Sequence record: NC_020079.1
Length of the DNA stretch: 64,000 nt
Direction: 5' to 3' (one strand)
Source of the DNA: Escherichia phage phAPEC8
In this document: positions 50,088 through 60,778 of the stretch, piece after piece
How the letters are laid out: each line of letters opens with the position of its first letter
Position numbering within the stretch: position 1 is the stretch's first letter
The notes under the pieces: generated by a model
Databases searched by the model: none
Seen by the model: the letters and a program-made list of their open reading frames with translations, nothing else
Told to the model about the DNA's origin: nothing
Program-made: the position numbers and the translations under genes

Positions 50088-50690
50088 TTATGGACATTCA
50101 TACCATTCTTTTTTACCACCAAAGGCCATCACCACATCGCAAATATCCAGACCAGCTTTACCTACACCATATGCTTTCAGCTTCCATTCCCCATCTTCAC
50201 GAACCAGCGAAGCCACGTGGCAGATTGTGTTGCCAGCTACTTCAGGAGCCAGGAAGTCAAAATCCAGAATTTCCACATTGCGCTCGGAGTCGAAGATTTT
50301 AAGCATACCTTCAGAAGCATGACCAAAACGTTTCAGACCTGTATCATCATCAATGGTCAGAACAAAGGCAATCTCTTGTGCATCAGGAGAGATTTTAGCC
50401 AGAGTAATATCAATCTGCTCCATGCTGCCAGTTCCATCACGAACATCGTCACCAGCGAAGGTAGAACGTTCAGGATCAAACTTGTTAGCATAGCAAACCA
50501 GATGACGTGCAGACAGCATTTCAGGATTGCCAGCGGCATTATGACGACAAACCAGTGCACTTACATCCAGATCCAGTTTAGAATCAGATTTCCAAGAGAA
50601 TTCCAGGCGCAGTTCTTTCAGAGCCGGAGCAACTTTCTTCAGGGAAATTTTTTCGCTAGAACCTTTTTTCAGGGAAATTTTATCAGTCAT
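50088..50690 (-). CDS. TerD-family protein (tellurium-resistance TerD/TerZ/TerE-like)
   Basis: 200 aa; alignable block-by-block with E. coli TerD as recalled: ISLKKG..ISLKK, LDLDVSAL, AGDDVRDGTGS, IAFVLTIDD, FG...G, GEWKLKAYGVGKAGL. Confidence 0.8.
   Translation of the reverse strand: MTDKISLKKGSSEKISLKKVAPALKELRLEFSWKSDSKLDLDVSALVCRHNAAGNPEMLSARHLVCYANKFDPERSTFAGDDVRDGTGSMEQIDITLAKISPDAQEIAFVLTIDDDTGLKRFGHASEGMLKIFDSERNVEILDFDFLAPEVAGNTICHVASLVREDGEWKLKAYGVGKAGLDICDVVMAFGGKKEWYECP
50638..50681 (-). repeat. 14-bp direct repeat (TTCAGGGAAATTTT x2, 30-bp period) at the 5' end of the TerD-like gene
   Basis: Two identical copies at 50638-50651 and 50668-50681 encode the duplicated KISLKK peptide at the TerD N-terminus; a similar sequence opens the vWA gene. 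Confidence 0.5.
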
Positions 50691-50705
50691 CTTTTGTCTC
50701 CTCTA

Positions 50706-50975
50706 TTATTTAAGTGTAATACCAGTTACAGTCAATTCTACTTCCAAAAGCTTAGATGTGTTTTGGATTGATACTAATTGTGCATGATGGTTTAGTTCTA
50801 CAGCAGAATAATCATTTTCCCCATCATCTACTTTTAAATAAACAATGATTTCACTAAGGTCTAAACCATTTTCGTCAAATGCATTTTCATAGACGAAAGT
50901 ATCTCCTACATCCAAATCTTTAATGGTAAGGCATCGTTTATTTACTTTTTGCTCATCAATTTCGAAGTTTAACAC
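50706..50975 (-). CDS. small protein, paralog B of a duplicated family preceding Ter-type genes
   Basis: 89 aa; GTG start with SD AGGAGG overlapping the upstream gene end; paralogous to ORF 51997..52275 (shared DLDVG.TF...Y, ...VE(V/L)(D/E)L(E/T)VT(N/G)ITLK). Confidence 0.45.
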   Translation of the reverse strand: MLNFEIDEQKVNKRCLTIKDLDVGDTFVYENAFDENGLDLSEIIVYLKVDDGENDYSAVELNHHAQLVSIQNTSKLLEVELTVTGITLK

Positions 50976-51204
50976 TTCTTCCTCCTAATGTTATCTCCGG
51001 TTTGTATATACGAAGAATTATAGCATTTTCATTTTCTTTGTCAACCCATTCTTCATAATCGGGCCATACATGAATCTCTACTCTACTTACAATATCTTCC
51101 ATCCGCACAATCCCAATGAAATACTCTTTGAGACTGCGCATAATGAAAGCTTCTCTCTCGCGCCAATAATTTTCTACGACTTGAGAGGCAAGCTCGTCGA
51201 TCAT
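50956..51204 (-). CDS. hypothetical small protein
   Basis: 82-aa ORF between the vWA and paralog B genes; start overlaps the vWA stop. Confidence 0.4.
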   Translation of the reverse strand: MIDELASQVVENYWREREAFIMRSLKEYFIGIVRMEDIVSRVEIHVWPDYEEWVDKENENAIILRIYKPEITLGGRSVKLRN

Positions 51205-51995
51205 TTTTTAGCACCTACTTTAACAACCCACTCTCCGAACTCTTCAGATAAGAGTTTGTCATAAAGCTCTGAATCTGTCAAGTCTAAATCTTTAATGCCA
51301 ATGAAACCAACATTATCATAAGCATTTGCCAGTTCTTTCAGGAAGCCAAACTTCTCATTACCAACGCCAACCATGAACCAATAAATAGGTTTATTCTTAT
51401 TCTCTTCGATAAGACGACGAACAGCACTAGGATCACCATTCTCACCATCCGTTTGGAAGAATACAACACCAGGGGTAACGTCAGCACCTGGTTCAGATAC
51501 AGCTACAACCTTTTCACGCTCTACAGATACTGTTTCAGTTTTACCAAGCAGACGATTAAAGAAGCCTTTCTTTGGAGCCTCCTCTTGTACCACTTGTTTA
51601 GTGGTAATATATTTGGTAACAGTGCCAAAATACTCGTCGTAGATATCTGCCATTACAGGGGCGTAGTTTGTTCCACCTCCGATACGAACATTACGCATAC
51701 ATTTACCAACATAATCATCGTAAACGTCTGCTGTTGCTGGGGTAAGCTCTTGAGAACTCGTATTAAAGGCCCACATATCAATTTGTTCATTATCGTCGAA
51801 CAGCATACCAAAAGGAAGCAGTTTACCTACAAAATCACTCACTACCCCACTAGCATATAGACCATGCATACTACCAGAAATATCTAGAGCACATGCTACA
51901 CGAAGAACAATCTTACCTTCATTCAGGTTCTTATTCTTTTTCAGAGAGAAAGCAAGGTTTTCTTGACGTTTTTTCAGGCTGATTTTCTCGGACAT
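51201..51995 (-). CDS. von Willebrand factor A domain protein (TerY-like context) with TerD-like N-terminal peptide
   Basis: 264 aa; MIDAS motif DISGSM, GGTNYAP and TDGENGD; N-terminus MSEKISLKK...FSLKK echoes the TerD N-terminal repeat. Confidence 0.65.
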   Translation of the reverse strand: MSEKISLKKRQENLAFSLKKNKNLNEGKIVLRVACALDISGSMHGLYASGVVSDFVGKLLPFGMLFDDNEQIDMWAFNTSSQELTPATADVYDDYVGKCMRNVRIGGGTNYAPVMADIYDEYFGTVTKYITTKQVVQEEAPKKGFFNRLLGKTETVSVEREKVVAVSEPGADVTPGVVFFQTDGENGDPSAVRRLIEENKNKPIYWFMVGVGNEKFGFLKELANAYDNVGFIGIKDLDLTDSELYDKLLSEEFGEWVVKVGAKK

Positions 51996-51996
51996 A

Positions 51997-52275
51997 TTAT
52001 TTCTCCTTCTTAAGTGTAATGTTGGTAACTTCTAAATCTACTTCCACCATCTTTGTATCTGGTGGGATGCAATGAGTATAGCCTCGTTGTGCTAGTGATC
52101 CATTAATACAGATCGCACTGTTTGTGGAATTTTTAATGAACACCAAGTTACGGTAGGTATCCAACCCTGCGTCTTCATAGGCATCATAATACATGAATGT
52201 GGCCCCTACGTCAAGATCTTCGAAAGCAATAGGTAAATCCTGACTTTTTTCTTCTTGAATATTGAATCTAAACAC
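51997..52275 (-). CDS. small protein, paralog A of a duplicated family preceding Ter-type genes
   Basis: Track ORF 51997..52341 trimmed to a GTG with SD GAGGAGG that overlaps the upstream gene end, the same arrangement as paralog B. Confidence 0.4.
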   Translation of the reverse strand: MFRFNIQEEKSQDLPIAFEDLDVGATFMYYDAYEDAGLDTYRNLVFIKNSTNSAICINGSLAQRGYTHCIPPDTKMVEVDLEVTNITLKKEK

Positions 52276-52831
52276 GCATACCTCCTCTACCAATTTTGAA
52301 GCCCAAATCGTAAGCTTCCTTAGTGATCTTTTGTAACTCACTTATAGGAAGTGTTACAAGAGGATCATCTTCTTCAATTTCCATCTTGTCATCTTCTGTT
52401 TCAATGAGAGTATTATGCACTTTGTGATAAGGGTTGTCAACACGTTTAAACTTATTCTTTTCTGTGCTGAAAAAACAATCTGGATCTTCTTCACCATCAC
52501 CCCAACCTTGGTTAGGATCTCCGTCAGATTGTTCTGTAGGGATTTCACCTGTAAAGTACTCTTCCAGCACCATAGCGATACCGTCCCTTGGATTTGAGGA
52601 ATGCATCAAATCACAAACCTTACTCCAATCCATAGCCCATTCAAATCGTTCACGAACACCATTTTCATCCTCCTTTCCAGAGAAAACACAACCATAACTA
52701 TCATAGTTGCCATACATCTCTTCAATAACAACACCGTCCTTCAAAAGAAAGAGATAACAAGGTGATCCGTCGAAAGAAGTAGAAAGGGCAGCTTTGCCCG
52801 ATTCTTTGCACAAAAAGCTAAAACAACCCAT
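52268..52831 (-). CDS. hypothetical acidic protein
   Basis: 187 aa; Asp/Glu-rich central region (EQSDGDPNQGWGDGEEDPDCFF, ETEDDKMEIEEDDP). Confidence 0.45.
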   Translation of the reverse strand: MGCFSFLCKESGKAALSTSFDGSPCYLFLLKDGVVIEEMYGNYDSYGCVFSGKEDENGVRERFEWAMDWSKVCDLMHSSNPRDGIAMVLEEYFTGEIPTEQSDGDPNQGWGDGEEDPDCFFSTEKNKFKRVDNPYHKVHNTLIETEDDKMEIEEDDPLVTLPISELQKITKEAYDLGFKIGRGGMRV

Positions 52832-53229
52832 TACAAACCCTCCTTCAGATTATCAAGAGCTACAGTGGTTTCACAAAATTCTCCATAAGCTTTATGATGT
52901 TCCAGAAAAGCTTCGGGTCCACCCCAGTCATTATCTTGTGTATTCCAGCCATCAATAAAAGCATCTTCAATGATTGTGATCAGTTCCTGTCGAGTCAACG
53001 TAATGGTATCAGGTTTCTGCGTAGTTTCCACACGGAACCCTGGTTCTTCATAAAAACCTTTAGTTACAATGGATTCTAACTCTTCTGCATCACAGAGGAA
53101 GTAGCCACAAAGATAACACCCACCGTCATCATCTTTCATTACTTCATAAACTTCACCACTTGCTAACTTGATGAAAAGAGTAGGGTCTGTTACTGTAAGT
53201 TTTAAAAGAATACCTGTTGGATTATACAT
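52831..53229 (-). CDS. hypothetical protein
   Basis: 132-aa ORF; ATG overlaps the 3' end of the small acidic ORF upstream. Confidence 0.45.
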   Translation of the reverse strand: MYNPTGILLKLTVTDPTLFIKLASGEVYEVMKDDDGGCYLCGYFLCDAEELESIVTKGFYEEPGFRVETTQKPDTITLTRQELITIIEDAFIDGWNTQDNDWGGPEAFLEHHKAYGEFCETTVALDNLKEGL

Positions 53230-53395
53230 CTTCTTCCTCCTCTAAGATATGGAACCCGTAATTACAATAATCCTGAAAGGTTTCGTGTGCAAGATCTTCT
53301 ATATCTTCTTGAGACATATCATCTTCAATTTCGATATCTACAACCTCATTGCATCCACACCAAGCCGTTTCAATATTCACTCGTAATATTTTCAT
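53222..53395 (-). CDS. small highly acidic protein (57 aa, below ORF-track cutoff)
   Basis: Hand-translated ORF MKILRVNIETAWCGCNEVVDIEIEDDMSQEDIEDLAHETFQDYCNYGFHILEEEEDV; preceded by GGAGGAGGAGGAG; its ATG shares a nucleotide with the upstream stop (TAATG). Confidence 0.4.
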   Translation of the reverse strand: MKILRVNIETAWCGCNEVVDIEIEDDMSQEDIEDLAHETFQDYCNYGFHILEEEEDV

Positions 53396-53595
53396 TACTC
53401 CTCCTCCTCCTCATTGAAGTCAATATCTGCAAGGAGTTCGAATTTACGGAAGTTACGACAACCTTCATAAATATAACAATCACGACAAACTGCTAGAACA
53501 CTTGGGGGATATATGCCTCCCATCGGTGCGAATCGTTTTTCGTCATCATAACGGACACCAATGTCTTCATCAATTATATAGATACGGATTCTCAT
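53395..53595 (-). CDS. small acidic Cys-containing protein
   Basis: 66 aa ending in NEEEEE; start overlaps the upstream gene stop. Confidence 0.4.
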   Translation of the reverse strand: MRIRIYIIDEDIGVRYDDEKRFAPMGGIYPPSVLAVCRDCYIYEGCRNFRKFELLADIDFNEEEEE

Positions 53596-54704
53596 TTACC
53601 AAGCCCTCGTTTCACAGCAGCTACCATCCCGTCTTCCAGAGATTGAACTTCATTAATATAATCAACACGAGCAGCACGGGCTTCCGTATTGATGCGGTTA
53701 GTTTCTTCCAACATCTTAACCAAGTTTTCCTGATCGTGACGCAGAGTTTCAATATCCAACACTTGACGGTTAGCCAGTGCTGCTGCTTCGATCTGATTCT
53801 GTGTGGCAAGATCGCTACCCAGTTTAATTGCCAGGTTAAATTCATCAAGAACGTTATTCTGCGTCTCTGCTGCTTTCATTTGACGTAAGCTCTCGATATA
53901 CATTGAGAAGTTAGCAGAGTAAGCAGGAATAACATTATTTACTATGTTACGCGCAGATCGCATTAAGCTTGCAGAAACTTTTTGCATACCTTGTACACGC
54001 GGTCCCATTTGGACACACAGTAGGCGCAATGCTTTTAAATCTGCAATACGAATCTCCAGAAGATCCAAAGTATCTCGGATCACTTGTCGCTGTTCTACTG
54101 CATCTTCTGGAAGAGCAGCCAAAGCTTGTTCTTCTTTTTCATAGGTTGCTGTTAGAAGCTGCATATCTCGGTTCAAACTTGCAGCATATTGTCCAATAGC
54201 TTGATGTAGCTTTTCAAGATATACCAAGGAATCTTCTTCTTTGCGAATATCCATTTGAAGGTTCTTTACCAACTCTTCAATACGGTTATTAACATTATCA
54301 AACTCCCCAAACAGATCTTCTTTCATACCCATAACTTTTTTAATGAGTTTAGTAATACCCTTGCTTTGTTTAATAGAGTTTGGATCAAGTTGTTTTGCCT
54401 GTTTAATCAAAGCTGTGAGTCGTTCACTCATCTGATCGCCTTGATTACTACGTTGATGTTTTAATACCTCGGCATTCAAGGAACGCAAGGTTGTTCCTGC
54501 CTCTGCCCCAATCTCTTCAATCTCTTGTCGGGTCATAGAAGGCAAAACTGGAACTTCTTGCGGTGCCGCTGGTGCATAAACAGGACTGGCATCTAACACG
54601 CTTGGAGCGAATACAGATTTACTTGCATCGGTTGTTGCAGCAAATACGCTCATTTCAGGCTTCTTCTGACCACCAGTAGCTGCTTTTAAAAATGGACTTG
54701 TCAT
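53592..54704 (-). CDS. coiled-coil protein, TelA-like (toxic anion resistance family) candidate
   Basis: 370 aa, predominantly helical/coiled-coil; TelA assignment rests on size, composition and proximity to TerD/TerC/vWA genes, not on a verified signature. Confidence 0.35.
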   Translation of the reverse strand: MTSPFLKAATGGQKKPEMSVFAATTDASKSVFAPSVLDASPVYAPAAPQEVPVLPSMTRQEIEEIGAEAGTTLRSLNAEVLKHQRSNQGDQMSERLTALIKQAKQLDPNSIKQSKGITKLIKKVMGMKEDLFGEFDNVNNRIEELVKNLQMDIRKEEDSLVYLEKLHQAIGQYAASLNRDMQLLTATYEKEEQALAALPEDAVEQRQVIRDTLDLLEIRIADLKALRLLCVQMGPRVQGMQKVSASLMRSARNIVNNVIPAYSANFSMYIESLRQMKAAETQNNVLDEFNLAIKLGSDLATQNQIEAAALANRQVLDIETLRHDQENLVKMLEETNRINTEARAARVDYINEVQSLEDGMVAAVKRGLGK

Positions 54705-55291
54705 TCTTCATTCTCCTCTTCTGCATCTCTTATATATGGTGAAACACCGTACTCTTTAGCTACTTTAACCCAATCGTCCCATTTATACAACCATAATTTT
54801 CCTTCGGTCCCTTCTTTATCTGATTTCAACCACATATTAGGTTGCTTACCTGGGTACATGCGATTAGGTTTACGATTATAACCTCTAACACATCTTGTCG
54901 CAAACCCATCTACCAGAACAAGAACATATTTATATTCGTGGTTCAACGGCTCTTTGGAAGTGGCTTTAGGATTAGCCCCTAATTCTGCTGCCAGTTTTTG
55001 CCAATGAGCACCGTGCCTACTAAACTTACCCATACAACCATCAATAGCATGAGCAATTTCGTGCTTCATTGTGTCCACGATCATATCTCTTGTGGAGTTC
55101 TTATGCAAGTGCCAATTTACAACAACAATTTTATCTCGGTAGTTGCACCAACCGAAAGAGTTATTCACTTTGTTTCTAACACAAGCTTTATATCCTGCTT
55201 CACGTAACATGTTGTAGTAAACAGGAAAATCTTCTTTTATTTCCTGCATCACTTCCCACCACAAGAGTTGCAAGTCTCTCTCGGTATGCAT
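54701..55291 (-). CDS. SprT-like zinc metalloprotease domain protein
   Basis: 196 aa; HEIAHAIDG (HExxH) followed 8 residues later by HGAHW, the SprT-family pair of motifs. Confidence 0.6.
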   Translation of the reverse strand: MHTERDLQLLWWEVMQEIKEDFPVYYNMLREAGYKACVRNKVNNSFGWCNYRDKIVVVNWHLHKNSTRDMIVDTMKHEIAHAIDGCMGKFSRHGAHWQKLAAELGANPKATSKEPLNHEYKYVLVLVDGFATRCVRGYNRKPNRMYPGKQPNMWLKSDKEGTEGKLWLYKWDDWVKVAKEYGVSPYIRDAEEENEE

Positions 55292-55294
55292 AAC

Positions 55295-55888
55295 TTACAC
55301 CTTAAAAGCGAAATGCGTGGTCGTGGCTTCAAAATCAGGGCCAGATAAACTTGCACTGAAATCTGAAATATTTGTAATTAAAAAGCTTTTATGCATACCT
55401 AACACAGCCACGCTTTCAATATCTTCTACTAACATTTCAATCATGTTAGAAACATGGCTGAACGTATAGTTTTGTTTTTTGATGGTGTAGAAAGAAAGAC
55501 TCCCACCTGCTGTATAAGATACCTCTTCAAAATCTTTAATCGTATATTGTGTACCATCAGTAAAGAAAATGGTAGCTTTATTAGTAGCACGTTTCTTGTT
55601 TTTTGGTCCTTTTTTACGTTTACTGCGAGTAGGCAAACCGTTTGGGAACACCGTAGCTACAAATTCTTCAGGGGAAACCTCCTTACCGAAATCATAATCG
55701 TAAGAAACAGCGTCTATACACTCGTCGTCTTCATTTTTAAAATAATGAAAATAGGGCCAATTTGAGAGATTATCGAGCATCTTATGCGCATCCACAACAG
55801 AGAACGTATCCCTCAAAGCACGTGTGATTTGCAAAGCATTAGGCAAACTTTTAACACCTGTAATGGAAGTACGAATAGAAATTGTCAT
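55295..55888 (-). CDS. hypothetical protein
   Basis: 197-aa ORF with a basic central patch (RSKRKKGPKNKKRATNK). Confidence 0.45.
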   Translation of the reverse strand: MTISIRTSITGVKSLPNALQITRALRDTFSVVDAHKMLDNLSNWPYFHYFKNEDDECIDAVSYDYDFGKEVSPEEFVATVFPNGLPTRSKRKKGPKNKKRATNKATIFFTDGTQYTIKDFEEVSYTAGGSLSFYTIKKQNYTFSHVSNMIEMLVEDIESVAVLGMHKSFLITNISDFSASLSGPDFEATTTHFAFKV

Positions 55889-55902
55889 TGTTTTTCTCCT
55901 TA

Positions 55903-56355
55903 TTAACGTCGCTTGCTACGAGATGAACTCTTTTTACTTAAAGGGCTATTGTAAGATTTACGAGTTGTATAGCTACTATTTGTTTTAAAAGTTTGTCTCG
56001 GCTTTTCATAAGTTTTTATCTCTTGTTTAGGCTTACCATAAAAATTAGTTTTCGGTTTAGGTGTATTATAATGCTTATTAATAATCGTTCTGTTATCGTT
56101 ATAATCCCCACTGCTACGATTACTACCACCACTCATCATATGCCCTAACAACATACCTGTAGCAAACTCACCAACACCGCTACTACTAGAACCGCCACCA
56201 TTGTTGATAATAGTTGTATCTCCGTCAGATCCTTGTTGAGCGTATTGTTGAGGAGGTTGTTGGTATTGTGCAGGATTTGTTTCATCCTCGCAAGCTGTTA
56301 AAAAGATACAACCAATTAAAATCAGGGCTAGTTTTTTCATATTTGCTTTCCTCAT
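55903..56355 (-). CDS. lipoprotein (signal peptide + lipobox LTAC), Gly/Ser/Gln-rich
   Basis: Track ORF 55903..56415 trimmed to MRKANMKKLALILIGCIFLTAC; classic n-h-c signal region with lipobox Cys; alternative start at 56340. Confidence 0.5.
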   Translation of the reverse strand: MRKANMKKLALILIGCIFLTACEDETNPAQYQQPPQQYAQQGSDGDTTIINNGGGSSSSGVGEFATGMLLGHMMSGGSNRSSGDYNDNRTIINKHYNTPKPKTNFYGKPKQEIKTYEKPRQTFKTNSSYTTRKSYNSPLSKKSSSRSKRR

Positions 56356-56527
56356 TTTGACTATTAATACATCTGTGTTTGAAATCTCCAGAGAAGCAAT
56401 AAAGTTGCTCTCCATCTCGGTATAAACTCACTTTACTGCCGTTGATTACGCTTGTCAATACAAAAATTACAACAAACAACCCTATTGCAAAACAAATATT
56501 TTCAAACACAACCAACAAGTATTTCAT
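56282..56527 (-). CDS. small membrane protein overlapping the lipoprotein gene start
   Basis: 81-aa ORF with N-terminal TM helix (LLVVFENICFAIGLFVVIFVL); its 3' part overlaps the lipoprotein gene in another frame, so true extent is uncertain. Confidence 0.3.
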   Translation of the reverse strand: MKYLLVVFENICFAIGLFVVIFVLTSVINGSKVSLYRDGEQLYCFSGDFKHRCINSQNEESKYEKTSPDFNWLYLFNSLRG

Positions 56528-56874
56528 TTTAAAAATACCTCATCATCAGTCTCATTATCCCAGAAGAACAAATCCCAACCATTCGGATCATTCCATTTGG
56601 CTGCTGGAGAAGTCCATATTTGTTCGATATCAATATTCAAAACTTCACCGTTTCGTTTTGAAACAGCTTTAGTTAATTCCCAACGAGATACAGGCTCTAC
56701 TTCCCCTGAACCACTCCCACAACAAGCTACCACGTTAGGAGGCAAATTAATTGGATCTTTGGTCACGATCATAACGCTTACCCCAGGGTAAACTTTTGAA
56801 AGATAATCTAAAACGTAATCCACATCACCAGATAAATCCCAAACAAGTTCTTGAATTTCATCAAAATTATTCAT
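56524..56874 (-). CDS. hypothetical protein
   Basis: 116-aa acidic ORF immediately downstream of the TerC-like gene. Confidence 0.45.
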   Translation of the reverse strand: MNNFDEIQELVWDLSGDVDYVLDYLSKVYPGVSVMIVTKDPINLPPNVVACCGSGSGEVEPVSRWELTKAVSKRNGEVLNIDIEQIWTSPAAKWNDPNGWDLFFWDNETDDEVFLK

Positions 56875-56916
56875 AAGTCTCTCCTATAAAATAGCCTCCC
56901 GAAGGAGGCTCATCTA

Positions 56917-57891
56917 TTAAACAGCAGCTTCTTCTTTTTCAGGGAAGATAAAGCTTGCAATAACACCAAGAGCTAATGTGCCTAGAACAATCATCAGACT
57001 TACGTTAGGGGAAATATCATGCGGGAGGAATGACCACTTGGCATGAAGTGTTTCACCGAACGGGTGATACATAAGTTTAGCACCGACAAATACCAGAACC
57101 ACAGCAACAGCTTTCTCTAAGTGAACCAGATATTTCACAGCCACACTTAACACAAAGAAAAGTGCACGTAAACCAAGAACAGCCATCAGCATTGCAGAAT
57201 AAACTAGCAGAGGTTCTTGTGTCACACCGATCACAGCCGGAACTGAATCAAAAGAGAAGACAATATCTGTAAGCTCAATAACAAACACACAAAGAAGAGC
57301 AGGAGTTGCATATTTAATACCATTCTTAATGGTGATGAACTTTTCACCATCTAGTGCATTGTGCACAGGCAGAACTTTACCTACTAAACGAACAGCCCAA
57401 TGCTTAGAGTAATCAATATCCTCTTCTTCGTCACCACCTTTGATGATAGCCACGGCAGACCAAGCTACAATCAAACCGAACAACACTTGGACCGACCAAT
57501 GAAGGTTAAACAAAGCGGTCCCTGCTGCAACAAAAATACCTCGGAAGACAATGGCTCCTGCAATCCCCCAAAGTAAAATCTTATGTTGGAGATGTGTGCT
57601 CTTAATTCCAAAGCTTGCAAAAATTGCCATGAACACCATCAAGTTATCTACAGAAAGACTCTTTTCCAACACATAGCCACTTAGGAAAAGCGCGGCAAAC
57701 TCTTTACCATGTTCTACCCAAATGAATGCGTAATATCCTAAAGCTAAAGCAATCCAAAAAACAGACCAAAGCAAAGCAGATTTAATTCCAATTTCTTTAT
57801 TCTCTTTATGACCAAAGAAATCGATACCAATAGACAATGCTAAAATACCAACCAAAACAACTACATCAATAATGGGGAAACCAAGTTGCAT
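56917..57891 (-). CDS. TerC-family integral membrane protein
   Basis: 324 aa, multi-pass hydrophobic; contains EKSLSVDNLMVF and ELTDIVFSFDSVPAVIG, matching the two conserved TerC blocks (SxDN and ExxDxxFxxDSxPA). Confidence 0.6.
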   Translation of the reverse strand: MQLGFPIIDVVVLVGILALSIGIDFFGHKENKEIGIKSALLWSVFWIALALGYYAFIWVEHGKEFAALFLSGYVLEKSLSVDNLMVFMAIFASFGIKSTHLQHKILLWGIAGAIVFRGIFVAAGTALFNLHWSVQVLFGLIVAWSAVAIIKGGDEEEDIDYSKHWAVRLVGKVLPVHNALDGEKFITIKNGIKYATPALLCVFVIELTDIVFSFDSVPAVIGVTQEPLLVYSAMLMAVLGLRALFFVLSVAVKYLVHLEKAVAVVLVFVGAKLMYHPFGETLHAKWSFLPHDISPNVSLMIVLGTLALGVIASFIFPEKEEAAV

Positions 57892-57910
57892 TATTTTCTC
57901 CTTTCTCTTT

Positions 57911-57929
57911 GCGGGGAACCACTCCCCGC
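57911..57929 (-). promoter_or_regulatory. 5'-UTR stem-loop upstream of the TerC-like gene
   Basis: Stem GCGGGGA/TCCCCGC with 5-nt loop, 20 nt upstream of the ATG at 57891 and downstream of a promoter-like element; no U-tract. Confidence 0.3.
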
Positions 57930-57941
57930 CTCATGTGATAC

Positions 57942-57969
57942 ATCTTACTCTATTCTAAAACTTTGTCAA
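57942..57969 (-). promoter_or_regulatory. possible sigma70-like promoter (TTGACA-N16-TAAGAT) upstream of the TerC-like gene
   Basis: Consensus -35 TTGACA (57964-57969) with a weak -10 TAAGAT (57942-57947). Confidence 0.3.
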
Positions 57970-57972
57970 CAC

Positions 57973-58194
57973 TTATTTTGAAGAACTTGAGGAAAAGATC
58001 CCACGTAGTACAGCCATGATAAATGCCACACACACCACAGTCCAGAAGGTGACAGGAACAGTGATATCTGTGTGACCCATCATTTCAACAACGTAGTTAT
58101 AAGCCAGCAGCAGAAGCCATGCTGGAATCATACTAATCAGAAAAGCAATAACAAACACAATAATCACTGCAAGAATACCTGCTAAAACGCCCAT
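57973..58194 (-). CDS. small hydrophobic membrane protein (3 predicted TM segments)
   Basis: 73 aa, almost entirely hydrophobic (ILAVIIVFVIAFLISMI, WLLLLAYNYVV, VTFWTVVCVAFIMAVL). Confidence 0.45.
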   Translation of the reverse strand: MGVLAGILAVIIVFVIAFLISMIPAWLLLLAYNYVVEMMGHTDITVPVTFWTVVCVAFIMAVLRGIFSSSSSK

Positions 58195-58207
58195 AATATT
58201 TCTCCTC

Positions 58208-58681
58208 TTAAAGTTTATAAATAGTCACATCGTGACCTGTTTTTACTAAAGTTTCTTCAATCATCACTTGGATGATAGCCCAATTACCTCCAGCATGTCC
58301 AGCGCCAATCATAGGTAAGCCGATCTTACATTTTTGGTCACGGAGAAGCAAATCGTTAGCCATAGCTATTAGTGCATCGTAAAGTGCATCATAGTCCAAC
58401 TGACGACCTTTAGCATTGTATCCGTAACGGTATTGCCCGTATAGATTATATACCAAAGGGTCTGATTGTTCGTCTGGCACTCCTAAACTAAAACAACCTA
58501 GTTTACTTTGATCACCAGCCATTGTGTCTAAGTCTGCTGCATATGCGTAAGGAAATGCTCGTTTGATTTGTGGGGCAATACCTGCCCCCATATTACACAT
58601 ACAGTTGCAACAATGAGCAATAACAGTTACTTCACCTGCTTTAGCGGCATCAATAAGATTACCTGTTTTCATTTTAAGCAT
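58208..58681 (-). CDS. macro domain protein, TARG1/DarG-like (ADP-ribose-processing hydrolase)
   Basis: Track ORF 58208..58786 trimmed to the ATG with SD AAGGAG just after the upstream stop; motifs VIAHCCNCMCNMGAGIA and GLPMIGAGHAGGNW...VTIYKL parallel human TARG1 (AHCISEDCRMGAGIA, MPRIGCGLDRLQW...ITVYTL, from memory). Confidence 0.65.
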   Translation of the reverse strand: MLKMKTGNLIDAAKAGEVTVIAHCCNCMCNMGAGIAPQIKRAFPYAYAADLDTMAGDQSKLGCFSLGVPDEQSDPLVYNLYGQYRYGYNAKGRQLDYDALYDALIAMANDLLLRDQKCKIGLPMIGAGHAGGNWAIIQVMIEETLVKTGHDVTIYKL

Positions 58682-58694
58682 TTTTAGCTCCTTA

Positions 58695-59522
58695 TTACAG
58701 AATGTGTTGTTTTGTGTAACGATCCAAGAATTCAAAGTTTTCAGCATACTTTGAAATTCGGTTGTAACCTTCTCCCAAGCATCCAAAGAAAAGTTGCTCT
58801 ACATAGTAATGTGGCAATTGGCTAAGAATGATTTTGAAGTCTTCATGATTTTGGCCCATAAGATACTTAATAGGACGAACAAGACACTGTGCATCACGTT
58901 CTTCATTAATCATTTTAACAAACGCTTCCGGTGTATTAATGTAGTTAAAATTCAGTTTAGCTTCGGTATCTGCTTGATTACCTTCATATTTTGCAAAATA
59001 CAGGAAGTAAACATCATTTTTAACTTGATTTTCATTAAGGATCTCAATCAGTTTGTCTTCATGCGTTCCAGTGATATTTACATCATCAATGAATACAAGC
59101 TTCTTATCACCCCAGAATTCTTTGTTACAGTAGAATGTATCCCCATCAATAAGTTTCTTACGACTAGCTTTATCCAAGAAACCATAATCGTTGATATAGC
59201 TAACTTTACGATGAATAATGTCCAGTTCTGCTGAACGACCTTGATCATATTGTGATTGCAACATATTAAAGTAATTAATAAAATGATCTGTCATCATTGT
59301 TGCAGCATTATGCACATGGTTGTAAGGAGAAGGAATGATAACAAATTGTTCCCCAATATGTTTCATTGCCACTTGAGCAAAAAACTGAAGTGCCAATTCT
59401 TTACCCATACGACGCGCGGCTTGGTTACTACCAAATTTCAATTTTGAATAATCTTGGATATCAAAAGTAGCAGTTTCCAGGTCATCAAATTTATTTGCAA
59501 AAATTTGAGTTTGATTACGCAT
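58695..59522 (-). CDS. type I phosphoribosyltransferase-fold protein (PRPP-binding loop)
   Basis: 275 aa; KKLVFIDDVNITGTHEDK matches the PRPP-binding motif (hydrophobic-DD-x-x-TG-x-T) of type I PRTases and PRPP synthetase homologues. Confidence 0.5.
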   Translation of the reverse strand: MRNQTQIFANKFDDLETATFDIQDYSKLKFGSNQAARRMGKELALQFFAQVAMKHIGEQFVIIPSPYNHVHNAATMMTDHFINYFNMLQSQYDQGRSAELDIIHRKVSYINDYGFLDKASRKKLIDGDTFYCNKEFWGDKKLVFIDDVNITGTHEDKLIEILNENQVKNDVYFLYFAKYEGNQADTEAKLNFNYINTPEAFVKMINEERDAQCLVRPIKYLMGQNHEDFKIILSQLPHYYVEQLFFGCLGEGYNRISKYAENFEFLDRYTKQHIL

Positions 59523-60171
59523 TTACAATTTCTCCTCTTTTAAGTTTCTCTAGTAAGTCGTTAGGGTTCTTAATATGACAGAAGTTAAATCCTAAGTCAA
59601 CACATTTTCCATCATATTCTTCACTATCGCCTACGTGCAATACTTCGTGCCCTAACAGAGGGATCGGAGAATACGTGAGCGTGCGAGCAAAGAATCGCGG
59701 ATCTGGTTTACAAAGTAAAGCTTCATCCGAGAAATGGGTGAACTCAAAACAATTCCAACTATCAAACTTACAAGCACGACGCAGGATATCCCCTGATATA
59801 AAGTTGGTATTGCTCTTAATACTCAAATCATAACGTCCCGAAAGATACAGCAAGTACATCGGCAGATCCACGGCTACGTGTGGTGGAAACTTAAGGAACC
59901 ACTGTTCACACTCGAAACGAAGCTTTGCAGACTTCCAAGGTGTTATCCCAAGTTCAGAACCAAGTCTTTCCCAGGCGTATGCTGCACACTCGGCTTTGCC
60001 TTGAAGTGCTGCATTATCCAGTTCCTTTTTGATCTTCTTATAAGCTGCTCTTGCTTCCACTTCCGTAATATCTCCATATTTTGCGATAGTCCAGGCTCGC
60101 ATGTCTGCGTAATTGGAGTTTGCTGTGATCAGTGTGTTCCATACATCAAAAGAGATATGTTTAATAGTCAT
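59515..60171 (-). CDS. HAD-superfamily hydrolase-like protein (putative phosphatase)
   Basis: 218 aa; N-terminal ISFDVWNTLI (motif I-like, Dx(W)xT) and C-terminal LHVGDSEEYD (motif IV GDxxxD); second Asp of motif I is replaced, so assignment is tentative. Confidence 0.4.
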   Translation of the reverse strand: MTIKHISFDVWNTLITANSNYADMRAWTIAKYGDITEVEARAAYKKIKKELDNAALQGKAECAAYAWERLGSELGITPWKSAKLRFECEQWFLKFPPHVAVDLPMYLLYLSGRYDLSIKSNTNFISGDILRRACKFDSWNCFEFTHFSDEALLCKPDPRFFARTLTYSPIPLLGHEVLHVGDSEEYDGKCVDLGFNFCHIKNPNDLLEKLKRGEIVNA

Positions 60172-60172
60172 A

Positions 60173-60778
60173 TTAAGCCCACCATGCGTCTAAGTTAAGA
60201 TTACTGTCCACTACCACTTGTTCTATGTGGTAGCCTTTTATCTGTATCCCACTGTTCAAGAGCATATCATACGCTTCATTGAAACGCAACTTATCTTCTG
60301 CGGAATATAAGCGAGCATTATAAAATCGGTAATCAATTTCTTCAGCATTAGAAGAAATACGGAAGAAGTTTGTTTCTACTTCGGGATCACTTGCTGAAGT
60401 CTTAATGTGAACTTCTCCGTAATTTTCTTTACTTAGATCCATGAAAAGAACACAGGCAACATGTTTAAACATTCGTTCCAGTTTGTAACGAACAACATTG
60501 AAACCTGCATTCTCAAGTTTTTCTACACACTGCAACATTAAAGTAGTGTCGAGATCGCTTTGATACTTTGTTAACATACGATCACGTTGAGACTTTGTAT
60601 CCCGATGTAAATCAATTGTTGTGCATTTGGCACCAATAATCTTAGCTGCTTTCATCAACTCTTCAGAACTAACGTTAGATAAAGTAAGATGAAAGTGGGC
60701 TTTCCACACTTTTTTAGCAGGGACACCAAAAGATTTATCCCCACTATTCGGCATGTTGACTACTACACTATGTTGCAT
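60173..60778 (-). CDS. hypothetical protein (one HxTx motif, possible 2H-phosphoesterase relative)
   Basis: 201 aa; contains HFHLTL but a clean second HxT/Sx motif is missing. Confidence 0.4.
   Translation of the reverse strand: MQHSVVVNMPNSGDKSFGVPAKKVWKAHFHLTLSNVSSEELMKAAKIIGAKCTTIDLHRDTKSQRDRMLTKYQSDLDTTLMLQCVEKLENAGFNVVRYKLERMFKHVACVLFMDLSKENYGEVHIKTSASDPEVETNFFRISSNAEEIDYRFYNARLYSAEDKLRFNEAYDMLLNSGIQIKGYHIEQVVVDSNLNLDAWWA

Follow-up and report, generated by a model that had tools for sequence, protein, structure and literature searches.

What is a gene for a Spartan-type zinc metalloprotease doing beside the Ter-type genes of a coliphage, and does it belong with them? The question is raised by a small gene of Escherichia phage phAPEC8, located at positions 54701-55291 of the stretch of 64,000 nucleotides from sequence record NC_020079.1 analysed here (the window) and lying directly upstream of a gene for TelA. 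Judged from sequence and modelled structure, this SprT-like gene most likely encodes an active, soluble zinc metalloprotease of the SprT/Spartan class, and its family membership, catalytic residues, fold, purifying selection and phyletic pattern are established in silico. Its pairing with TelA is confined to one phage lineage, and the role that is tentatively favoured below concerns proteins attached to DNA.

Identity and conservation of the gene product

A sequence-only reading had placed a SprT-like zinc metalloprotease at 54701-55291, and these positions coincide with exactly one open reading frame (ORF) on the minus strand, which has an ATG start and encodes 196 amino acids (aa). The surrounding region of the window is 99% identical to that of ~150-kb Escherichia and Shigella myophages of the genus Phapecoctavirus, subfamily Stephanstirmvirinae, including SF1-1, PNJ1809-36, ESCO5/ESCO13 and the phAPEC8 group. 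The first ATG of the gene, at 55291, lies 3 nt past the stop of the preceding gene, and a Shine-Dalgarno-like AAGGTG (55298..55303, minus strand) stands 6 nt 5' of it, inside the final codons of that preceding gene. Several GenBank records call a shorter, 182-aa version that starts at M15; the 196-aa form is preferred here because the alignments with homologues and with the PHROG profile begin at residue 1-3.

The SprT signature recognized by the sequence-only reading can be read directly from the translation, where HEIAH at aa 77-81 (55049..55063, minus strand) is followed by HGAHW at aa 93-97 (55001..55015, minus strand). In a profile alignment with human Spartan (6mdx; E 3.3e-7), HEIAH pairs with HEMIH 111-115 and H93 with H130 of a GHG motif. 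H77, H81 and H93 would bind the zinc, and E78 would serve as catalytic base. A hidden Markov model (HMM) search with the Pfam SprT-like family PF10263, which had been suggested as a check, gave a match above the gathering threshold (E 4.2e-9; 36.7 bits against a gathering score of 25.6; aa 31-107), and phrog_6445 matches the protein over its full length (E 2.8e-63). The bacterial SprT equivalog model NCBIfam NF003421 reaches 19.9 bits, below its cut-off of 175, and Pfam ArdC has no match in the protein or in 68 aligned homologues. The family is large: an exhaustive HMMER search of 1.84 billion representatives recovered 998 relatives at E <=0.001 (a word-indexed protein search returned 4 close relatives only), and SprT-like matches are found in 362 isolate phage genomes.

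Conservation was assessed on the alignment of 68 homologues, which share 22-47% identity with the phAPEC8 protein and all of which (68/68) match PF10263. H77, E78, H93, W97 and G105 are invariant, H81 is 99% conserved, and near-invariance extends, beyond H81, to G47, C49, T74, A80, A82 and P142; H96 of HGAHW is not conserved. Against a 93%-identical relative, the ratio of nonsynonymous to synonymous substitution rates (dN/dS) is 0.05 at an unsaturated dS of 0.78, which indicates a functional gene on which purifying selection within the genus is strong. A motif as short as HExxH does arise by chance, and one could suppose that it is incidental here and that the product is catalytically dead or a non-enzymatic scaffold. 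Such a view is scarcely credible, however, when diverged homologues keep the catalytic glutamate and all the zinc ligands without exception or, for H81, at 99%, the curated Pfam threshold is passed, dN/dS is so low, and a zincin fold is predicted at high confidence. The profile score, the invariance of the catalytic residues and the modelled fold all bear out the identification as a SprT-like zinc metalloprotease.

Fold and relationship to characterized proteases

The sequence-only reading had held that the assignment would fall if modelling gave no metalloprotease fold. An AlphaFold2 model built on the 68-homologue alignment, with a mean predicted local distance difference test score (pLDDT) of 93.4, has the alpha/beta protease fold of the zincins. 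The protease subdomain (aa 1-110; 54962..55291, minus strand) is predicted to consist of two N-terminal helices, a three-stranded sheet, the active-site helix and the next helix. Its closest structural counterpart is the protease subdomain of Spartan (Foldseek to 6mdw, E 2.8e-4), and hhalign aligns aa 33-127 with E. coli SprT (YggI) at a probability of 96.7% and E 3.9e-10. An ImmA/IrrE-type repressor protease was also considered and was ruled out, with a Foldseek probability to IrrE of only 0.2 and no Pfam match.

Human Spartan (SPRTN; SprT domain in 6MDX/6MDW), a protease that attacks DNA-protein crosslinks in a DNA-dependent manner, and the phage protein are alike in combining HExxH with a third histidine, in SPRTN within the GHG motif, and in placing a second subdomain directly after the protease, in which the phage G-Y-x-R-K aligns with SPRTN G181-Y182-V-K184-R185. 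They share only 17-18% identity, however, and the phage protein lacks the zinc site of the SPRTN zinc-binding domain (ZBD) and ends at aa 196, without a basic region, SHP box, PIP box or UBZ and without further Pfam domains. E. coli SprT (YggI, b2944) belongs to the same domain family, is of similar size and likewise consists of a protease followed by a small C-terminal module, but it is 16% identical to the phage protein, which is no NF003421 equivalog and in which a longer, cysteine-less beta domain replaces the C4 zinc ribbon. More distant comparisons set the phage enzyme further apart. ArdC of plasmid R388 (PDB 6SNA) has the reverse domain order, an N-terminal domain that binds single-stranded DNA followed by a C-terminal metalloprotease, and uses Glu as third ligand where the phage protein has His (H93); Wss1/WLM proteases differ in that the phage protein has no WLM match and no SUMO- or ubiquitin-related modules; and the minigluzincins selecase and abylysin lack the second domain that the phage protein possesses.

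The direct family members are other phage SprT-like peptidases (phrog_6445 and phrog_3768), among them those of the T4-like, jumbo and Streptomyces phages of Iyer et al. 2021. Homologues from Slopekvirus, Pseudotevenvirus and Schizotequatrovirus have the same two-domain layout and align to ~aa 168. Their genomic contexts differ from that in phAPEC8 and from one another (topoisomerase II/rIIA, DNA ligase, SIR2, a fusion to an SNF2 helicase), whereas TelA is a neighbour only in the Phapecoctavirus lineage.

The C-terminal domain

Structural departure from characterized relatives is concentrated in a beta-rich C-terminal domain (aa 119-186; 54734..54937, minus strand) located where SprT carries its zinc ribbon and Spartan its ZBD. 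Modelled alone, this domain has a pLDDT of 90. No Pfam model covers it in the phAPEC8 protein or the 68 homologues, in which no Pfam zinc ribbon is matched either; no CxxC or CxC pair follows the protease domain, C134 being the sole cysteine there, and the cysteines of the C4 ribbon of E. coli SprT, which lies at the same position, align with non-cysteine residues, as do those of 21 ribbon-bearing homologues. Zinc knuckles do occur within the wider family, as CxxC...CxxC is present at the ribbon position in 21 of the best 151 HExxH-bearing representatives, and in several of these 21 a Y-x-R-K-P motif lies between the two knuckles, as in CPNCGKVRRYYRKPKIHRACSCGRC.

The phAPEC8 form of this motif is Y138-N-R140-K141-P142 (54866..54880, minus strand), which aligns with Spartan Y182-V-K184-R185-A. 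Among the 68 homologues an aromatic residue is found at Y138 in 90%, a basic residue at R140 in 96% and at K141 in 84%, and Pro at 142 in 93%; the conserved positions of the domain as a whole are K121, Y122, Y138, R140, K141, P142, W154, T162, G164, K165 and L166. The pairing comes from the profile alignment with Spartan, which extends into the ZBD (G137-Y138-N-R140-K141 with G181-Y182-V-K184-R185) at a low-confidence alignment edge. W154 lies 13 residues past K141, and SPRTN W197 lies 12 residues past R185. In SPRTN, Y179/W197 and especially R185 are required for DNA-structure-dependent activation, which the R185A substitution cripples (PMC7534798). The phage domain is basic, with a calculated isoelectric point (pI) of 9.4, and may have retained contact with nucleic acid. 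It may represent a zinc-less, enlarged derivative of the SprT ribbon/ZBD, as motif-level alignment tentatively suggests and structural comparison does not bear out.

Beyond the domain, the protein ends in an acidic tail, IRDAEEENEE (aa 187-196; 54704..54733, minus strand), which is modelled at low confidence (pLDDT <50 for aa 192-196) and is not conserved among relatives. The tail shifts the charge of the C-terminal part from +4.5 without it to -0.5 with it.

Relationship to the Ter module

The Ter system has been described in bacteria and noted in some phages, and has been proposed to act as a superinfection-exclusion or stress device (Aravind group, PMC7824862). The sequence-only reading described the SprT-like gene as lying between TelA-like and TerC-like genes, which holds strictly for one side. 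TelA (53592-54704, minus strand) adjoins it immediately 3', but TerC lies 1.6 kb upstream (TerC/Alx; 56917-57891, minus strand; TIGR03718, E 2.6e-95), separated from it by four ORFs and a hairpin. The ORFs encode, from the hairpin towards the SprT-like gene, an uncharacterized 116-aa protein, a small membrane protein, a lipoprotein-like protein and an uncharacterized 197-aa protein. The terminator-like hairpin after TerC (56893..56910, minus strand), AGCCTCCTTCGGGAGGCT followed by a T-rich run, lies at the same place as a rho-independent terminator annotated in phage ASO2A, and is the likely upstream limit of the transcription unit that holds the SprT-like gene.

The stop codon of the SprT-like gene and the start codon of TelA overlap by 4 nt in the sequence ATGA (54701..54704, minus strand), an arrangement that makes translational coupling possible. 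The order SprT then TelA is held in relatives of 46-93% identity, which at the lower end, 46-48% protease identity, are Klebsiella phage KP2025, a 153-kb Logan contig and an IMG/VR contig; in these the two genes are adjacent, 9 nt apart. From the overlap, from the persistence of gene order at such divergence, and from the position of the gene 3' of the post-TerC hairpin, in a same-strand run with membrane and lipoprotein genes and TelA, one could argue for an accessory or regulatory protease of the Ter-like module that is co-produced with TelA and processes or turns over TelA, vWA-TerF, TerD or the adjacent lipoprotein and membrane proteins.

The phyletic pattern makes this improbable. Phage VEcB of the sister genus Justusliebigvirus possesses TerD (x2), vWA, TelA (78% identical), TerC, macro, PRTase and HAD genes, yet its whole 147.7-kb genome contains no SprT-like ORF detectable with the family HMM at E up to 10, a search that recovers the SprT-like gene of the window at E 2.4e-50. 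Nor does any SprT-like ORF lie within 10 kb of TelA in PBECO4, RaK2, Caulobacter phage CcrBL9 or Pseudomonas phage phiPsa347, and among Escherichia phage records TelA occurs in 137 and the SprT-like protein in 66. Viewed from the protease, the association dissolves in the same manner: of 80 related viral loci, gathered with a profile of 13 closer sequences, 75 are viral-contig relatives from outside the subfamily, and none of these has a Ter gene within 8 kb. Five isolate-phage relatives that were inspected have none within ~4 kb, and close homologues sit in unrelated contexts such as SIR2 and topoisomerase II/rIIA. Because the sister genus, other Ter phages and other SprT-like loci all lack the pairing, the adjacency is best regarded as lineage-specific synteny and the protease as no obligatory Ter component. 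The proposal of the sequence-only reading that the enzyme acts on partner proteins of the surrounding cluster is accordingly disfavoured, given that VEcB keeps the whole cluster without a SprT homologue, that four other Ter phages have no SprT beside TelA, and that relatives outside the subfamily have no Ter genes nearby.

Two candidates that bear on this pattern were rejected. The first is a 'putative peptidase' beside TelA in RaK2 and PBECO4, which would have been an independent link between TelA and a protease and could have been counted in favour of an accessory role; it has no HExxH and is a Rv2179c-like 3'-5' exonuclease. These genes, RaK2 ORF173 (L097:11044-11724) and its PBECO4 counterpart (L096:11157-11846), carry the label 'similar to T5 metallopeptidase' and match a Rv2179c-like 3'-5' exoribonuclease domain at E 1.6e-8 to 4.5e-8, so that the peptidase label is probably a propagated misannotation. 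The second is VEcB gp037, beside Sir2, as the missing SprT, an idea prompted by a 40%-identical homologue that comes after a SIR2 gene on a metagenomic contig; it was ruled out, as the family HMM finds nothing in VEcB.

A more elaborate coupling, in which the protease works with TelA as effector or regulator of a Ter-type exclusion module carried by the phage, is less probable still and is best treated as a long shot. At the membrane, for example, it could destroy proteins that are attached to DNA or guard DNA ends and that belong to a superinfecting phage or to incoming DNA. In that case Justusliebigvirus would have dropped the protease or put something else in its place, and SprT proteases with a cysteine-less ZBD would constitute a phage-specific, DNA-guided class devoted to phage-host conflict and not to repair.

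Possible roles of the protease

Homologues of 27-43% identity adjoin SIR2 or DNA ligase, or sit between topoisomerase II and rIIA. The last arrangement is that of the T4-like (Straboviridae) genera Slopekvirus and Pseudotevenvirus, in which the homologue directly follows the gene for the topoisomerase II medium subunit and precedes rIIA. Pectobacterium phage POP12 has a homologue just upstream of its rII genes; the homologue loci in these genera and in POP12 are L006:3923-4477, L101:3414-3956, L102:3414-3953 and L103:3480-4022. Such a position may be simply syntenic, or may point to a connection with topoisomerase cleavage complexes or with the rII anti-exclusion locus. A full-length, 40% identical metagenomic homologue (L009:140-1461, P0008) overlaps the end of a SIR2-family gene. 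A further relative is encoded on a viral contig (L084:7893-11054), where a 1054-aa fusion consists of an N-terminal SprT-like domain, a cysteine-rich stretch and an SNF2 helicase with a LAGLIDADG-type intein.

Proteolysis, contact with DNA and the kind of substrate are all inferences. The sequence-only reading had suggested that the enzyme might process host or phage proteins bound to DNA, which is plausible. The reading that we favour, while holding it somewhat short of an even chance, is that the enzyme is brought to nucleic acid and there breaks down proteins that are crosslinked to DNA, or have stalled on it, while the phage replicates. The C-terminal domain would dock the enzyme on nucleic acid via an aromatic and basic surface (Y122, Y138, R140, K141, W154), the protease would cut the crosslinked or stalled proteins, and the gene would probably share its early/middle transcripts with the genes for replication and nucleotide metabolism. 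A DNA-associated role is supported because Spartan, whose proteolysis depends on DNA, is the closest relative in structure, because the domain at the ribbon/ZBD position is basic and keeps a motif equivalent to that of R185, because one distant viral relative forms a fusion with an SNF2 helicase and the Slopekvirus and Pseudotevenvirus homologue directly follows topoisomerase II genes, and because the phAPEC8 gene shares strand and block with genes of replication and nucleotide metabolism, namely those for DNA polymerase, primase/helicase and ribonucleotide reductases.

Several observations pull in the other direction. The C-terminal domain alone has no significant structural match, hhalign detects no relationship between that domain by itself and E. 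coli SprT, the phage protein lacks the zinc ligands of the ribbon/ZBD, and the edge of the HMM alignment at which the ZBD motif pairs is of low confidence. In the T4-like phages, adjacency to topoisomerase II is also adjacency to rIIA and possibly reflects inherited gene order, and clustering of the ORFs within 4 kb in 76 viral loci gave no recurrent functional partner, the largest neighbour cluster occurring in 13 of the 76 and consisting of small proteins without assigned function. A literature search found no biochemical or genetic experiment on any phage SprT-like member, and we know of no established role for bacterial SprT in the repair of DNA-protein crosslinks.

A close rival of the DNA-associated reading is a protease of host takeover or anti-defence, which would cleave one or a few specific host proteins, such as DNA-bound restriction or defence complexes or nucleoid proteins, and would have no part in repair of the phage's own DNA; this we consider possible, if unlikely. 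Its distribution fits, as the gene is patchily spread (present in Phapecoctavirus and the Klebsiella-phage relatives, absent from Justusliebigvirus) and lies among small accessory ORFs with no conserved partner, and Iyer et al. 2021 (PMC7824862) regarded the restricted occurrence of phage SprT-like peptidases and their variable copy number as favouring host targets. The protease also diverges faster than the Ter core, with 46-48% identity as compared to 70-89% for TelA, TerC and TerD in the same genomes, but this rate is not distinctive, because divergence is equally rapid in the macro, HAD and PRTase genes of this cluster, and within the genus purifying selection is strong. A comparable role has been proposed for jumbo-phage SprT-like peptidases and for the plasmid anti-restriction protein ArdC, although the anti-restriction effect of ArdC is reported to be independent of its protease activity. 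PADLOC gave no significant defence or anti-defence match, a match to SspF at E 0.007 being insignificant.

Annotation and implications

The SprT-like gene is an ordinary phage accessory gene that already carries a SprT-like label in databases, and its cysteine-less C-terminal domain is a modest structural twist within a known family. UniRef lists the phAPEC8 and PNJ1809-36 orthologues as 'SprT-like domain-containing protein', while GenBank labels range from 'SprT-like family protein' in one record to 'M48 family peptidase' in PQ571307. The M48 label is unsupported, because Pfam Peptidase_M48 has no match in the phAPEC8 protein and matches only 2 of the 68 homologues, weakly. The proper annotation is SprT-like metalloprotease, not M48 peptidase, and the gene should not be counted when the Ter module is interpreted. 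In the literature library that was searched, no paper connects SprT with Phapecoctavirus or Stephanstirmvirinae.

Large phages commonly encode SprT-like peptidases, of which the search here recovered ~1000 clusters at 50% identity. Should the enzymes prove to be DNA-dependent, they would be the first phage-encoded proteases of DNA-protein crosslinks or roadblocks, and would offer a minimal, zinc-ribbon-free model of DNA sensing by Spartan-type enzymes.

Neighbouring genes in the window

The genes among which the protease is found constitute a near-complete Ter-type module in a lytic coliphage, extending over 50088-60778 on the minus strand and conserved across Stephanstirmvirinae, and they match the 'nucleoside-like metabolite plus membrane complex' architecture of Iyer et al. 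2021 (PMC7824862). All on the minus strand, the components other than TelA and TerC are a second hydrolase-type ORF (60173-60778), a HAD hydrolase-type ORF (59515-60171; 'hydrolase' in relatives), a PRTase_3/ComF-like gene (58695-59522), a macro/DarG-like domain ORF (58208-58786) followed by a small membrane ORF, and, beyond TelA and the small ORFs that come after it, vWA-TerF (51201-51995) and TerD (50088-50690). The mechanical start of the macro-domain ORF is a TTG, with a 92-nt overlap with the PRTase gene; related records have a 474-nt macro gene, and the true start is therefore probably an internal ATG near 58681.

Records of this region under non-enterobacterial host names also exist: MG065650 (Campylobacter phage B15), OP562383 (Acinetobacter phage ABPW7) and OR584014 (Pseudomonas phage PsgM04F) are 90-99.5% identical there to Phapecoctavirus coliphages, which could reflect true polyvalence or wrong host attribution.

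Between the hairpin and the SprT-like gene, the 197-aa protein (55295-55888, minus strand; phrog_27550) has no Pfam match and is homologous to the C-terminal half of a 283-aa protein that precedes TelA in Justusliebigvirus (L092:6081-6932, phrog_27504), and so follows the Ter cluster more closely than does the protease. The lipoprotein-like protein corresponds to a 170-aa ORF (55903-56415, minus strand) whose internal start, MKKLALILIGCIFLTAC, resembles a lipoprotein signal with lipobox and is followed by a Gln/Ser/Gly-rich low-complexity stretch. This ORF overlaps a small hydrophobic 81-aa ORF (56282-56527, minus strand), and its length differs among GenBank records (438 as compared to 513 nt). 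Further downstream, a perfect sigma-70 consensus (51017-51044, minus strand), consisting of TTGACA, a 16-nt spacer and TATAAT with an upstream TG (12/12 matches), lies inside an 82-aa ORF (50956-51204) and 42 nt 5' of the 89-aa ORF (50706-50975) that precedes TerD.

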